Assembly (NCBI RefSeq): GCF_011630105.1
Contig: NW_022715116.1
Location: 64,001 to 77,195, forward strand
Source: Anneissia japonica
Lineage: Eukaryota
Length of the DNA stretch: 13,195 nt
Direction: 5' to 3'
The translations under genes were made by a program, and so were the position numbers. Numbering within the stretch: position 1 is the stretch's first letter; each line of letters begins with the position of its first letter. Positions 249-8,722 of the stretch are shown one piece after another. The notes below the pieces were generated by a model. It worked only from the letters and a program-made list of their open reading frames with translations, searched no databases and was not told where the DNA came from.

Positions 249-464
249 ATTCCTTCCAGTGGATGCTAGTTAATTTTGTCATTCTTGTTCCGTTTTAATT
301 TTAAATAGTTTTGCATTATGTGGCCGTTTGCTGTTTTATGGGTTTTTCCCATTTGCCTTTTAAAATTTATATATTATTAAAGAATCTCTATTGATTTTCT
401 CTACTGTTCCGTTTTAATTTTATATATACATCTAGATGTTATATATATCATATCATAAGTATTT

Positions 465-987: not shown

Positions 988-1757
988 CTGAAAAGGAGTT
1001 TTTCAGTCGGAGTGAACATTGCTGCTGTCAGTTTATTTGCTAAGCCTAAATTACCCACGTGTCCATAGTATGCAGAGCAGGGCAAGTCCTTAGGTTTCAT
1101 ACAAAACCATGGCTCTCCGGTTATTTTATCAGTGTAGTTGCATAATTCATTTGCAGTCGAAAGTTGCACATGGCATAGTACTTTTCTTTTTGTTTTACGG
1201 AGTTGAAATATCCCAGTGTATGTCATTCGAATCGGATTGGTTTCACGTACACGTTGCATAGCTGCAATTGCCTCACTACTATGTACCAGTTGTACATTGA
1301 TAGTCACAAAACCACTCCATCTCAGTGTAAAATATGCGCTATATGAACCGTTGTTGTGATCAACTACTTCCCCATCTGTAGGCGCACTTGCTTTTAATGT
1401 TGTAGAGAATATTTTGGCGCGAAAATAATCACCTCCTATTTGCTTATTAGTGTTAAACTGGTCACGTGCTTGAATTATTACGTGGATCTTGTCGCATATA
1501 TTATACGAGATTTGCTGATTTTCAATACTGAAAGTACAATGTTTAGGGTCTGTAATGTGCTGGGTTTTTTTAATGTCCCGGTAGACGTCTGTTAAATTCA
1601 GGATCGATTCATTTTGATGAAGTGCTGATGATGTCAACGTTGGTACAATGCGTGAATAATTTCCGTACTTTCTTTTGCCAGAATGATTGTTGATATTATG
1701 GTGAATATGCTTATATCCAGCAATTTTCGGTAGAGTACTGCGATAATCAAATTTTTT
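988..1757 (-). CDS. Internal coding exon of an NXPE-family gene (neurexophilin and PC-esterase domain family), covering the N-terminal neurexophilin-like domain
   Basis: On the minus strand the frame is open from 1763 down to 988. The ORF-track 'M' at 1637 is a TTG, not an ATG; the frame simply continues upstream. Translation is KKFDYRSTLPKIAGYKH...SILNLTDVYRDI...YNICDKIHVIIQARDQFNTNKQIGGDYFRAKIFSTTLKASAPTDGEVVDHNNGSYSAYFTLRWSGFVTINVQLVHSSEAIAAMQRVRETNPIRMTY...LCNYTDKITGEPWFCMKPKDLPCSAYYGH...LTAAMF. I recognise this as collinear with the conserved block of vertebrate NXPE proteins (pattern: YGGDYLQARIHS...VVDYQNGFY..FTLLWPG...LVHPSEGI...[24 protein letters not shown]...LLTAAES). The exon is bounded by a canonical acceptor (minus strand tttttgatttCAG|AAA, AG at 1759-1758) and a canonical donor (minus strand TTCAG|GTAATT, GT at 987-986). 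No in-frame ATG start and no stop are present, so this is an internal exon. Further exons should lie beyond 1760 (5' side) and below 988 (3' side, the PC-esterase part). Confidence 0.7.
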
Positions 1758-2000: not shown

Positions 2001-2024
2001 ATATATGCATATACATATACATAT

Positions 2025-2057
<33 letters not shown>

Positions 2058-2086
2058 CATATATATATACATACATACATATATAT
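2001..2086. repeat. Compound microsatellite (ACATAT)n/(AT)n
   Basis: Direct reading: atatatgcatatacatatacatatatatacatatacatat... Confidence 0.9.
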
Positions 2087-2118
2087 CAATGGGTCTAAAT
2101 GAAACATTCCTGTAATGC

Positions 2119-2156
2119 CTGTCTCTTATACACATCTAGATGTGTATAAGAGACAG
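2119..2156. other. Illumina Nextera mate-pair junction adapter (Tn5 mosaic end CTGTCTCTTATACACATCT plus its reverse complement AGATGTGTATAAGAGACAG); library-derived contaminant and assembly artefact
   Basis: Perfect 38/38 match to the circularisation junction adapter. The 32 bp immediately to its left (2087-2118, caatgggtctaaatgaaacattcctgtaatgc) are identical to 3717-3748, which lies inside the satellite array. Confidence 0.95.
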
Positions 2157-2813
2157 GACTACGTGTGTGCACACAGTGTTACAGTGGAATATGTAATTAT
2201 AGTCAGGTTCTAAAAGGACACTATAAAGTAGATGCCAAAGGAGACATTATTTTATAAAGACAATTGCCTGAATCCTTCAGTAAATAGGGCCTACATATTA
2301 TCATCACTTCCATCAACGTCGTCGCCACTGCCGTTGTCATTGTCATTATCGTCAAGATTTTATTTAGATAGGATATTATCTTTTAGCTAAACAGATGGGT
2401 TTTTTTTCATATATTTGAAATTATTTTGCTAATCATTAGCTTACCAAGAAACACTATGGATATATATCCAACATGCCGTTCGTTGTGCATTACGAAAGCA
2501 AGACTGTAAGCAAGACTGACATGGAGGAAAACTAATTCCTCCATGTTTACGGTTAGGGTCTAGGAAGCTCCACCAATCAACATCCTCGGATTAACTTAAG
2601 TTTGTCGGAACAATTTCCACGGCCAAGAAAATTGTACTTATACCCATTAAATTTCTTGCCGCAATTTAATGATTTTTGTTGTAAAACGTCTTTAAATAAC
2701 TGAACATTATTTCTTTTTTATCTGTAGCATAAATACAATTTTTAAAGTTTTATATTTATTTTTTTCCCTTTCGCACGTTAGTTATTTTTTGTGGCAATAC
2801 AGCAGCAGAAGTA

Positions 2814-3078
2814 CAATTTGCATATGTATGTTATGTTAAGCAAATAAATAACGACACGTTATAGGCGACAAGATAGTATAGTAACCGAAAGGTCCACTGA
2901 TTAATCTCAGATAAGATAGTATAATACATACTCCTAGTATCAAAATGCACGCCATCGTGTCGGGATTCAACGGGATTCAATATTGAATCCCGATACGATG
3001 GCGTGCATTTCGATAATTGGAGTATGTATTATACTATCTTATCTGAGATTAATCGGTGGAACTTTCGGTTATAGGCGA
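2814..3078. mobile_element. Foldback / MITE-like repeat, copy 2 (full-length hairpin with ~95-bp arms)
   Basis: The leader at 2814-2890 matches 465-540. The left arm 2883-2980 (taaccgaaaggtccactgattaatctcagataagatagtataatacatactcc...gggattcaa) is the near-perfect reverse complement of the right arm 2984-3071 (ttgaatccc...ggagtatgtattatactatcttatctgagattaatcggtggaactttcggtta). 'ttataggcgac' occurs directly before the hairpin (2859-2870) and 'taggcgac' directly after it (3071-3078). Confidence 0.65.
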
Positions 3079-3523
3079 CGGGTGGGCAAAATTCGGTCCG
3101 AAGATAATTTATGCTAAACCCTCTTTAACGGTCTGATGCCGATCATCAGTAAAAAAAGTAGTAGTAGCAAAACTGAGCATAAAGCTGCATAAAAGCAGTG
3201 CACAAATCCAATTTTATGTGCGACCCATTACATTAATCACTGCATCGGTTACTGATATATATTATATTGATGAAACTTATGAATTGAGTGATTATAATTA
3301 TAATTGGTTTTCCCAGCAGTACTGGGAAAAGTCATTGTTTTTGTTCTTATTTTTTTCCTTTTTTTCTTGCCTATATTTTTTCTATCCATTTGCACTGCTT
3401 TTCTCTGGCCGTCACTTTGGTCGCTTCCCATTCTTCGAATTTTTCCGTGCTTTGCCGAAACATAGGCCATATATATCAAGGATGTTCCTCCTCAACAGTG
3501 TCAATCTATGGTGGGGTGTGCGT

Positions 3524-4324
3524 GTGAGGACCAATTAAAGTGATTTAAGGTCAAACAGTCAACACCGGATATTCCAAAAACCGGTCAGTTGATGTGAATG
3601 AAAAGTTTAATCAAGGAAGACGTTTTTATGCGTTAGTGGCGATCCAGTGAAGGGTGTAAATTGGAGGGTCTTTTCAATTTTTCAGGACCCAGACCTAAAT
3701 ATCTCTTTAAAAAAAACAATGGGTCTAAATGAAACATTCCTGTAATGCTTTGTAAAGGTCTTGTAAAAAATAATTAAATTTTTGTGGCGATCTCCAGTAT
3801 GGTGTGGATCTGAGGACCATTTAAAGGAAAACGTCCCAGACCACATATTTCGAAAACGGATCAACTGATCTGAATGGAACTTTCGGAAAAAGTTTAACCA
3901 AGTTACAGGGAAGAATTATTGTGTGCTGGAGATGAATCAGTCAAGGTTGTAAATGGGAGGGTTATTTTAATGTTTGAGGACCCAGACCTATCTCTTAAAA
4001 AAAAATCAATGGGTATACTTTAAACCTTGTATAACAGTTTGTCAAGGTCGAGTAAAGAAATTATTAAATTTTAGTGACGATCCGGGCAGGGAACAGTGTA
4101 ATTTCACTGTTCGCTGATCCGGGGTAGGGTGTAGTGAGGACCATTGAAAGGAAAACGTCCCAGACCACATTATTTCGAAAACGGATCAAATGATTTGAAT
4201 GAAACATTCGAAAAAATTTAACCAAGTTACAAGGAAGATAGTATTATGTGCTGGCGACGAATCAGTCGAGGGTGTACATTGGAGGGTCATTAAATTTTTT
4301 TTAGATCCCAGACGTAAATATCAT
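3524..4324. repeat. Satellite-like tandem repeat, ~2.6 copies of a ~300-320-bp unit, each unit made of two related ~150-bp sub-units
   Basis: Unit starts are gtgaggacca(a/t)t(t/g)aaag at 3524, 3812 and 4134. Recurrent blocks within units include 'gaggacccagacct...aaaaaaaa(t)caatgggt', 'gtggcgatcc' and 'ggagggtc'. Homology decays at ~4324. Confidence 0.8.
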
Positions 4325-4899: not shown

Positions 4900-5252
4900 T
4901 AACCGTGTACACAAAGCGACTTGGCCTAATTTCTAAATCCAAAGAAAAATGTAAAAAAACAAAAAAAACAAAACAAAAAAAAAACAACTTAATTTTCAAT
5001 TCTTTCTAACCTTAAGATTTAATTGTTTTTAACTCACATCAAATATGTTCACTGGAATTAGTAAACATTTCTGTAACACCATCAAAAGAACGACAGCGCA
5101 AATTAGGAAACAAAATATAGTACGGAAATTCAGATATCTTTGTTGATGCATTGTTGACGTTTGCTCGAAAGTCGTGTTCAATAATTATAAGAATATTCTC
5201 TTCTTCGGTGGTATCGCAGTGTTCAATTATACATGTATTACGTGTTACGCGT
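4900..5252 (+). repeat. Dispersed repeat of unknown family, copy A (~350 bp), homologous to 12540-12829
   Basis: aagcgacttggcctaatttctaaatccaaagaaaaatgtaaaaaaa ... aactcacatcaaatatgttcactgg...gaacgacagcgcaaattaggaaacaaaata..gtacggaaattcagat...ttgttgatgcattgttgac...ggtatcgcagtgt...catgtattacgtg is ~80% identical to the block at 12540-12829, in the same orientation. Confidence 0.7.
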
Positions 5253-5569: not shown

Positions 5570-5650
5570 ATTGAAAAATATGACACACAAGCGGCCGATG
5601 TTCGTCGGCCGGCGCGATTCCATGACGACCGCAACGCGACAAGGCGCGGG
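5570..5650. repeat. GC-rich conserved block, copy 2 (homologous to 1826-1900)
   Basis: acacaagcggccgatgttcgtcggccggcgcgattccatgacgaccgcaacgcgacaaggcgcgggc versus 1826-1900. It lies within the minus-strand ORF 5498-5872, which has no recognisable protein similarity. Confidence 0.45.
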
Positions 5651-6344: not shown

Positions 6345-7083
6345 ATGAGCCATACCAGAAGCCAGACACAAGATCAACAGGCTATTGCAAAACAACAACA
6401 GGCTATCGCAAAACATGTGGTAGTCGAATTGTTGTCTAGCGTGGATTTTAAAAATGTTTTAAAAAGCCATATTGAAGAGGCATTTGCAAGCCCAGCTGTA
6501 TTGAAACAACTTGGCGTTCTTATTAGTAAGCAAATAACTCCAATAGCGGGATGACATCCATTCACTCACCGTCCAAGTTAATAAACTACAAGTGAGTGAA
6601 GACAGCATTATTGATAGGCTTACCGATATTGAAACGTCGATGGACGAACTAGAACTATATAGCCGGAGAAATTGTCTTCGTTTTTTCGGCATTGAAGGAC
6701 AGACCTCTGAGAATACGGATAGTGTCATCATTAAATTGGTTAACTCTGATTTGGATATCAATCTTACTCTAGACGACATTGATAGATCTCACCGTATTGG
6801 AAAGCAGATGGCAGGCAAAGCAAGGCCCATTATCGTGAAGTTTTGCCGCTATCACAAACGCAATGAAATTATTAAGGCTAGAAAAAAACTAAAAGGTACT
6901 CGTAGATCAATCCAGGAAGATCTCACAAGATATCGACGAGACTTAATAATTGCACTCAAAAAGAAGGAATGTGTTACAGCTTCGTGGTCAATCGATGGTC
7001 GTATCTACGCAGCGATTCGTGAGCAAAACGGCAAAGAAAATATGAAAAGAATTATATCCTTGGACGATATTAGGAAACTATAG
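6345..7083 (+). pseudogene. LINE ORF1 (L1-type ORF1p: coiled-coil plus RRM/Transposase_22-like plus CTD) with one frameshift near 6547-6554
   Basis: The N-terminal part (6345-6554) is glutamine- and alanine-rich and coiled-coil-like. After a 1-bp frame change the reading continues ...DDIHSLTVQVNKLQVSEDSIIDRL..ELYSRRNCLRFFGIEGQTSENTDSVIIKLVN...IDRSHRIGKQMAGKARPIIVKFCRYHKRNEIIKARKKLKGTRRSIQEDLTRYRRDLIIALKKKE...WSIDGRIYAAIREQNGKENMKRIISLDDIRKL. The patterns SRRNNLRI.GI.E, ..AHR.G.....RPII.KF and EDL are the L1 ORF1p RRM/CTD signature. The ORF-track 'M' at 6592 is a GTG. Confidence 0.65.
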
Positions 7084-7796
7084 GTCCAGGACTTATGTTC
7101 GGAACTTTAAAATAAAACGTTATATATTTTTTTTCATATTATAGAACATGATGTTAATTTTTTTACTAAGTTCCAGAAATCGTTATTCTGTTTATCTGTT
7201 ATGATGAAAAGTACTTTTTATTGGCATCATTAGTAAAATGTGCACATTCCGTAAGTCACGGTATTTTAATTATTCACCTGTACGCACAGTTCAATCATTA
7301 TGTAATTATTTGCTGCCAAATAGGTGAACTTATAACTTGCTCTTTAATATTTTATTGTGAGAGAATAATGTCCTGTTTCACCTTTAAAAAAAATTGCTTT
7401 TCTTCCATGAAGCATGTCACAATACCCTTCCTTGTTTTTCATGCCTCCCTGTCTCTAAATACTATTATAAGACCATAGGCTTATATCTTGTGAGTCTCGA
7501 AGTAATATTTGCCCGTTAACATTTACTGAACATAAACGGTATTACTGTTTTCAAAAATAATATTTATTATCTTATGTATCTTATCTTATATTTAATAATT
7601 GTTTTAAATTTTTTGTTTAATTTAATTATTGTATTAGATAAATTATGTCATGCTTTATATGCAACATAACTTCTTCTGAGAACATATTATGTCCATCATG
7701 TGTGTTTCCTTTAAACCATTATTATAAGGACAATGAATTTTTATATCAAATAAAAGTTTTTTCGGGGACCAGGTAGACCTCGTTAAGTTAAATGAT

Positions 7797-8688
7797 TTGT
7801 GTTTCAATCCATTTGATATTGATCTTGAGCATTCTAATTCAAACAATAATTTCCTTTTTCCAGATAATAATTACGCATGTAACTACAATTTCATTGACTC
7901 CTTTAATCAGAATTATTCAAATGAAGATTACTCATTTAGCATATTCAATTTAAATACCAGAAGTTTAGTAAAACACTTTGACGAAGTAAATGACTACTTG
8001 GATCTTCTTAAGCACAAATTTTCAGCTTTATGTTTTACAGAAACTTTCTTTAATGAAAACTCAACAAATTATTCTTTTTATCATATTCCTGGTTATAATC
8101 TTATTCATAATTCTAGAAATCAGAGAAAAGGTGGAGGTGTGGCTAAACACGTTATATCGTCATTGCGGACTTATAAAATCCGCATACGCTATAAAACTAA
8201 AAGAAAATGCATACTTTTGGAGTCCGTACTGAGCCCAAAAAATCCGCAATGAAAATATAAAGTATCTTTTTAGAAATAAATTATCAACCTAAAAACATAA
8301 TTCTCGGAGCTATATATCGTTTAGGAGAATTCCCCATCAACTTATTTAGTAGTAACGTCTCTCAAATTCTTCATATTATTAATAGGGAAAATAAGATTGC
8401 GTATCTCGCTGGAGACTTCAATATTAACCTCTTAAACTGCACAGACAATCAAATATCAGAATTTATTAATATAATGTTTAACTCAAATGTTTATCCTCTA
8501 GCAACGAAATCCACGCGAATAACAACAAAAACAGCTACACTTATTGATAACGTATTTACAAATAACATTTTAGACAAAATCTCCCCTGGTATTTTAGTGT
8601 CCGATATATCTGATCATTATCCCATATTTTTTCTTAATACATAATAATAGATTCCAAATATCTAAACCAGCTATAAATAAAAATTCCG

Positions 8689-8722
<34 letters not shown>

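Follow-up and report, generated by a model that had tools for sequence, protein, structure and literature searches.

The Tn5 mosaic end (ME) is an engineered hybrid of the outside and inside ends of IS50. In Nextera mate-pair libraries, the transposase cuts the DNA and adds a 19-bp biotinylated adaptor to each end, and circularisation then produces a 38-base adaptor pair, composed of one forward copy and one reverse complement, at which the reads that cross the junction need to be clipped (NextClip, PMC3928519; Skewer, PMC4074385). Both 19-nt halves are given as the 'left' and 'right' mate-pair junction adapters in bioRxiv 10.1101/443036, and chimeric inserts occur in mate-pair libraries (PMC3928519). 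The window (i.e. the whole stretch of 13,195 nucleotides of DNA that was analysed) contains a sequence that resembles the untrimmed Nextera mate-pair junctions found in assemblies in having the same 38 bases in the same orientation, the ends of a kilobase-scale fragment as flanks, and the same cut-site profile. It differs from the bacterial cases in that only 32 bp of the far end of the fragment is present and the host is an animal and, from many of them, also in that the full tandem 'fragment-adapter-fragment' duplication is missing. An EZ-Tn5 or Tn5 insertion would likewise read genomic-CTGTCTCTTATACACATCT...AGATGTGTATAAGAGACAG-genomic, but a real Tn5 insertion has a payload and a 9-bp direct duplication of its target, and the window has neither. 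Standard Nextera read-through shares the 19-bp ME, which is then followed by the i7 or i5 primer (CCGAGCCCACGAGAC... or GACGCTGCCGACGA...), whereas the window has no primer; and in an adapter dimer the reverse complement of the ME (ME') precedes the ME, which is the opposite of the order seen here.

We found a single exact copy of the 38-mer (CTGTCTCTTATACACATCTAGATGTGTATAAGAGACAG) in the window, at 2119-2156, with 0 mismatches; none of 200 dinucleotide-preserving shuffles contained a match, even when 3 mismatches were allowed. The 38-mer is a perfect palindrome (inverted-repeat family I3), the two 19-nt halves of which are mutually reverse complementary and follow each other as ME and then ME' with 0 bp between them and their outer ends toward the genomic DNA. 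Because this order arises only via ligation of two tagmented ends, the identification of the sequence as a Nextera mate-pair junction in the original prediction is borne out to the last base. The ME in the window differs at 3 positions from what we take to be the outside end of IS50 (CTGACTCTTATACACAAGT) and at 4 positions from what is presumably its inside end (CTGTCTCTTGATCAGATCT). In a comparison with the R1 and R2 Nextera oligos, the longest match in the window was the 19-nt ME alone, with no extension into a primer, and no match of 12 nt or more to the TruSeq oligos was detected. The window contains no N characters, and a scan of its whole length against Rfam at gathering thresholds gave no hits. 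Small open reading frames (ORFs) that run over the adapter translate to MCIRDR... and ...VSYTHLDVYKRQ..., which we assume to be typical spurious products of ME contamination; a literature search for these two adapter-derived peptides found no mention of them.

Table 1. Positions in the window of the junction adapter, its flanks, the inferred source fragment and two further adapter-like sites
Feature	Position	Strand	Remarks
Imperfect (ATATAC)n microsatellite	2003-2086		TRF period 6, 13.8 copies, 81% matches
Displaced 32-bp copy	2087-2118	+	False at this position; putative fragment 3' end read over the junction
ME, CTGTCTCTTATACACATCT	2119-2137	+	Exact; synthetic; adapter half 1
ME', AGATGTGTATAAGAGACAG	2138-2156	ME on -	Exact; synthetic; adapter half 2
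Inferred tagmented, circularised fragment	2157-3748	+	1,592 bp; genuine sequence
Native source of the 32-mer	3717-3748	+	Within monomer A of the ~300-bp tandem repeat
Site 2, CTTATACACATCTAGATGT	10405-10423		Junction positions 7-25, 19/19; adapter outer ends absent
Site 3, TATATACATCTAGATGT-TATA (window string TATATACATCTAGATGTTATA)	423-443		Similar to junction positions 9-30 (1 mismatch, 1 gap)

The 32 bp immediately to the left of the adapter had been described as a perfect copy of sequence located 1.6 kb away and preceded by a microsatellite. Both statements hold: this 32-mer (CAATGGGTCTAAATGAAACATTCCTGTAATGC, repeat family D13) has exactly two copies in the window, at 2087-2118 and 3717-3748, which match exactly on the same strand and lie 1,630 bp apart, the second downstream of the first; and the period-6 ATATAC tract ends at 2086. 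The identity of the two copies ends sharply on either side, with 'tatatat|' facing 'aaaaaaaa|' on the left and the adapter facing 'tttgtaaagg' on the right. The 'satellite' in which the downstream copy was said to lie is a degenerate tandem repeat of ~3 monomers of ~293-325 bp with 65-76% identity (families D4, D5, and D12). When the three monomers are aligned, 3717-3748 is in register and the homology to the next monomer runs on at either side of it, and we therefore conclude that 3717-3748 is the native copy and 2087-2118 the displaced one; in the same alignment, there are many differences between the 32-mer and its counterpart in the next monomer. The two sequences that abut the adapter are thus not contiguous in the genome, as the original prediction had it, with the left one being native at 3717-3748.

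What the present analysis adds to the first reading of the sequence is the geometry of the junction flanks. On its top strand, a circle made from one fragment has the order [fragment 3' end]-ME-ME'-[fragment 5' start], and the left flank of a junction is therefore expected to lie downstream of the right flank in the genome, on the same strand and at a distance of one fragment length. In the window, the native copy of the left flank ends at 3748 and the right flank starts at 2157 on the same strand, which indicates that a fragment of the same locus, 1,592 bp in length, gave rise to the junction read. To place this arrangement among the bacterial junctions, we considered as informative those loci with a single junction in which one, and only one, further copy of a flank occurs inside the 8-kb locus, and counted the geometry as the expected one when the copy of the left flank was downstream, or that of the right flank upstream, on the same strand. 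Among the matches listed, this was so for 54 of the 61 informative junctions (p ~ 2e-25 against a null of 25%), with distances of 73-5332 bp. Further, the exact anatomy seen in the window (i.e. unique sequence, a displaced copy of 21-550 bp, the adapter, and the original start of the fragment) was found in at least nine bacterial loci. The structure in the window is thus the ordinary signature of a junction-adapter artefact, and there is support for 2157-3748 being, in itself, consistent with a real fragment. The same flank-copy rule can be used in any assembly that contains this adapter, both to distinguish true chimeras from gaps that were mis-closed locally and to recover the original fragment.

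The identical 38-mer also occurs in unrelated bacterial assemblies at scaffold level (at least 120 stretches), which, among the matches listed, include those of Pseudomonas, Enterococcus, Collinsella, Streptomyces, cyanobacteria, and metagenome-assembled genomes, and in 7 IMG/VR contigs. The 9-mers flanking the adapter were identical in 0 of the 151 distinct public junctions among the matches listed, and the base composition of these 151 junctions shows the Tn5 target profile, in which position 1 is G, positions 4-6 are Y-W-R, and position 9 is C on both sides. The 9-mers in the window also differ from each other (CTGTAATGC at 2110-2118 and GACTACGTG at 2157-2165), so that there is no 9-bp target duplication, and the fragment inferred from the window fits the Tn5 profile in that its first base is G, its last base is C, and positions 4-5 of each 9-mer are Y-W. 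The recurrence of the 38-mer in unrelated assemblies, and the lack of either a target duplication or a payload in the window, agree with the earlier view that the adapter is not native eukaryotic sequence. Runs of N were found within 300 bp of 28 of 150 bacterial junctions as opposed to 9% of random positions, an enrichment of about 2-fold that is consistent with the junctions being associated with scaffold gaps. We also note that several bacterial assemblies, such as those of Pseudomonas sp. HS-2, Ca. Enterococcus wittei, and Collinsella ihumii, contain many junction adapters each (L001-L120 in our numbering of loci; e.g. L002, L009, L046, and L113). Some bacterial assemblies contain tandem 'fragment-adapter-fragment-adapter' arrays, which indicate assembly around small circularised fragments, and some of the adapters are variants with errors.

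We consider it very probable that 2087-2156 is an artefact of the assembly and stems from the middle part of an Illumina Nextera mate-pair read that had not been trimmed and was pasted in when a gap was closed. According to this proposal, Tn5 transposase would have cut the genomic DNA and put the 19-bp ME on both ends of a kilobase-sized fragment, circularisation would have joined the 3' end of the fragment to its 5' start through ME and ME' (38 bp), and the sheared circle would have been sequenced over the junction. One read from the 2157-3748 fragment would then have consisted of ...3717-3748, the 38-bp adapter, and 2157.... Such a read would overlap the real sequence that follows 2157 on the right, and a gap closer could have used it to extend leftward into a gap at the (ATATAC)n tract, with the extension being butted to the microsatellite at 2086/2087. 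The outcome would be a 70-bp false insertion, comprising the 32-bp displaced duplicate and the 38-bp adapter, in place of an undefined amount of real sequence. It is the (ATATAC)n tract (84 bp) that probably ended a k=69 de Bruijn contig and would thus have left a gap to be closed. The abrupt left boundary at 2087 would be accounted for because a 150-nt read made up of 32, 38, and 80 nt would start exactly there. The 38-mer is presumably absent from the genomic DNA of the animal.

The source of the window is probably the Anneissia japonica assembly made with Platanus and GapCloser, the contigs of which were built from short-insert reads only with Platanus at k=69, scaffolded with six mate-pair libraries of 2-18 kb, and gap-filled with GapCloser 1.10 (PMC7351957). 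As the contigs contain short-insert reads only, the adapter could, if this assembly is indeed the source, have entered only at gap closing. The cleaned reads were still 150 nt long in three of the long-insert libraries (2-5, 5-9, and 14-18 kb) and had been cut to 45-80 nt in the other three (PMC7351957, Supplementary Table 2); the latter lengths are what junction clipping would produce. The name of the mate-pair kit is not given in PMC7351957. Several observations count against the proposal as it stands: the implied 1.6-kb fragment is slightly shorter than the 2 kb at which the nominal size range of the libraries starts, the proposal does not account for the joining of the extension to the microsatellite at 2086/2087 with no overlap, and the 32-mer belongs to a repeat family, such that an identical copy of it elsewhere in the genome could be the true source.

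The original prediction, that an untrimmed junction read had been used for gap filling, agrees with the geometry, the displaced copy, and the microsatellite. It had left the joint as either 'chimeric or gap-filled', and the evidence favours the second of these terms: both flanks derive from the same locus and strand in the predicted order, and there is no sign that unrelated loci have been fused. It had also regarded 1990-2160 as unreliable, which is accurate for the 70 bp of 2087-2156, the only part that is demonstrably false; for the microsatellite, it is the true length that is uncertain, as is the real sequence between the microsatellite and 2157.

A long-range chimera, in which the adapter would mark a false join of unrelated regions such that the sequences before 2087 and after 2156 come from different loci, is unlikely to explain these observations. 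The known occurrence of chimeric inserts in mate-pair libraries (PMC3928519) speaks for it, as does the fact that nothing in the window ties the sequence up to 2086 to that from 2157 onward: we found no repeat copy in the window that spans the equivalent of the joint, and no gene spans it. A similarly low probability attaches to the events from which such a chimera would stem, i.e. intermolecular ligation at circularisation or an error in scaffolding. An intermolecular product would normally have one flank from elsewhere, but both sequences that abut the adapter are local and have the strand, order, and distance of one circularised fragment; and an abrupt join beside a microsatellite, such as that at 2086/2087, is what closed gaps inside scaffolds typically look like. 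The evidence thus points to a locally mis-closed gap rather than to a fusion of unrelated loci.

It is equally improbable, in our estimation, that the junction read was provided by another identical copy of the monomer, either elsewhere in the genome or in the other haplotype. The 70 bp would still be an artefact if it was, and the fragment inferred at 2157-3748 would, with the same small likelihood, be wrong. That the 32-mer sits in a repeated family lends this some credence, but identity among the monomers in the window is no more than 65-76%, with many differences from the 32-mer in the corresponding part of the next monomer, and an exact 32/32 match in the predicted direction, on the predicted strand, and at a distance compatible with a library is most simply explained by a local source.

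That the 38-mer is truly part of the DNA of the animal, as an in situ Tn5/EZ-Tn5 insertion or a native palindrome, is hardly credible: the presence in the window of two weaker adapter-like palindromes suggests that related short palindromes may be native, but the ME is an engineered hybrid of IS50 ends, the payload is zero, the 9-mers on the two sides (CTGTAATGC and GACTACGTG) do not form a target-site duplication, the sequence to the left is a duplicate displaced from elsewhere in the window, the same 38-mer is scattered over unrelated bacterial and viral assemblies, and its expectation by chance is effectively zero. An in situ insertion was rejected on account of the 0-bp payload and the differing flanking 9-mers, and ordinary Nextera read-through was rejected because no primer sequence adjoins the ME.

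The two weaker sites (sites 2 and 3; Table 1) have the centre ATCT|AGAT in common. In local alignments with the adapter, site 2 scored 38 and site 3 scored 32, compared with at most 26 in shuffles (n=20) and at most 18 elsewhere in the window. The flanks of site 2 are unlike the adapter, and the site is found 22 nt beyond the stop codon of a Penelope-like GIY-YIG ORF on the minus strand. Site 3 resembles the 22-nt core of the junction and also site 2 at 10405 (repeat family D19). It is located outside the adjacent MITE-like repeat, and the neighbouring MITE copy does not reach it. We further note that the 18-mer to the left of site 3 (405-422) is duplicated 119 bp upstream (286-303). A search for a second copy of the flanks of either site gave nothing informative.

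Sites 2 and 3 may be degraded remnants of the adapter. Against this, the outer ends of the adapter, at which real reads cross into genomic DNA, are both missing from each of the two sites, and the right sides of the sites are closer to each other than to the adapter. Further, true double truncations are rare near the 150 intact bacterial junctions among the matches listed, the doubly truncated sequence in its exact form does not occur in IMG/VR, and its one hit in 241 million metagenome records is a full adapter with two errors. The sites may instead be native palindromes, but the chance expectation for the window is ~1e-6, and site 2 is situated inside ~520 nt that are 'extra' in comparison with a related Penelope-like element, within a LINE with an interrupted reverse transcriptase (RT) frame. 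The related Penelope-like loci (L121 and L122) do not contain the site 2 palindrome, but they are only ~55% identical. A further possibility is that read correction with k=17, which was used in the A. japonica project (PMC7351957), pulled native near-matches at both sites toward hyper-abundant adapter k-mers.

The same region of the window contains a degraded LINE (~6590-11400, + strand), with an ORF1-like stretch at 6592-7083, an endonuclease-like ORF at 7797-8252, and an RT at 9303-9890 that resumes at ~11010-11397; ~360 bp of the RT are missing, with ~1.1 kb of other sequence in their place. The best protein identity of the RT is 59%. Nested in the LINE on the opposite strand is a 5'-truncated fragment of a Penelope-like element (10445-11011, - strand, possibly extending to ~9900) with a GIY-YIG nuclease domain. 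The best matches of its ORF have ~53-57% identity, the best named one being a protein of Antedon mediterranea (55%), and a 61-nt 3' segment of the fragment (9917-9976) is conserved with the ENA contig L122 (2300-2358). A MITE-like element is present in two copies (458-668 and 2807-3072; 92-97% identity) and has a perfect 42-bp palindrome at 558-599, CGCCATCGTATCGGGATTCAA|TTGAATCCCGATACGATGGCG; in the second copy, extra internal sequence forms longer inverted arms at 2882-2970 and 2983-3071. We also noted a dispersed repeat of ~230 bp (5014-5243 and 12592-12822; 77-85% identity), a GC-rich 56-bp repeat (1824-1879 and 5585-5640; 82% identity), and an imperfect (TAT)n/(TTA)n/(TATT)n low-complexity tract (11683-12110) that gives long spurious Ile-rich ORFs on both strands. 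Ten ORFs of the window were compared with a collection of 15 billion proteins, and none of them was present verbatim.

The artefact is located ~360 bp upstream, in the sense of the gene, of an NXPE-like exon (neurexophilin domain; 984-1760, - strand), which is open for 258 codons and to which homologues align by tblastn at 1002-1751 (- strand). Its best homologue is an NXPE3-like protein of the feather star A. japonica (68%), followed by one of Antedon mediterranea (58%), and, together with the Antedon match of the Penelope-like ORF, this marks the window as crinoid DNA, closest to A. japonica. The joint had been placed in the intron between this exon and its expected upstream exons, and this placement finds no support in the homologues: tblastn over the window revealed the single NXPE exon at 1002-1751 (- strand) and none to the right of the adapter, and the 251-aa homologue of A. 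japonica has its start in that single exon, which has F where the NXPE3-like model has its start Met. Comparison with the Antedon homologue shows that it is the C-terminal part of the gene that is missing, which would be expected at coordinates below 984 rather than to the right of the adapter. The exon may represent an unannotated paralogue or a pseudogene.

Overall, we conclude that the adapter is a real feature of the file and not of the organism, and that it belongs to a known class of assembly contamination; the 70-bp insertion has no biological function or significance. Its practical value for users of the assembly lies in quality control, since gene models, insertion and duplication calls, primer design, and palindrome scans would be misled at this position, and protein predictors will output spurious adapter-derived peptides. 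If the published A. japonica assembly is the source, the fault could be a systematic one, with unclipped 150-nt mate-pair reads having been given to the gap closer genome-wide, a reading to which we attach somewhat less than even weight. Were it correct, hundreds to thousands of closed gaps would contain 38-bp adapters together with short displaced duplicates, the k=17 correction might have altered native palindromes at 10405-10423 and 423-443, or these two sites might be additional damaged joints, and the genome of this animal would appear to hold local duplications that do not exist, ORFs (MCIRDR... and ...VSYTHLDVYKRQ...) that are spurious, and transposable elements and structural variants called in error.
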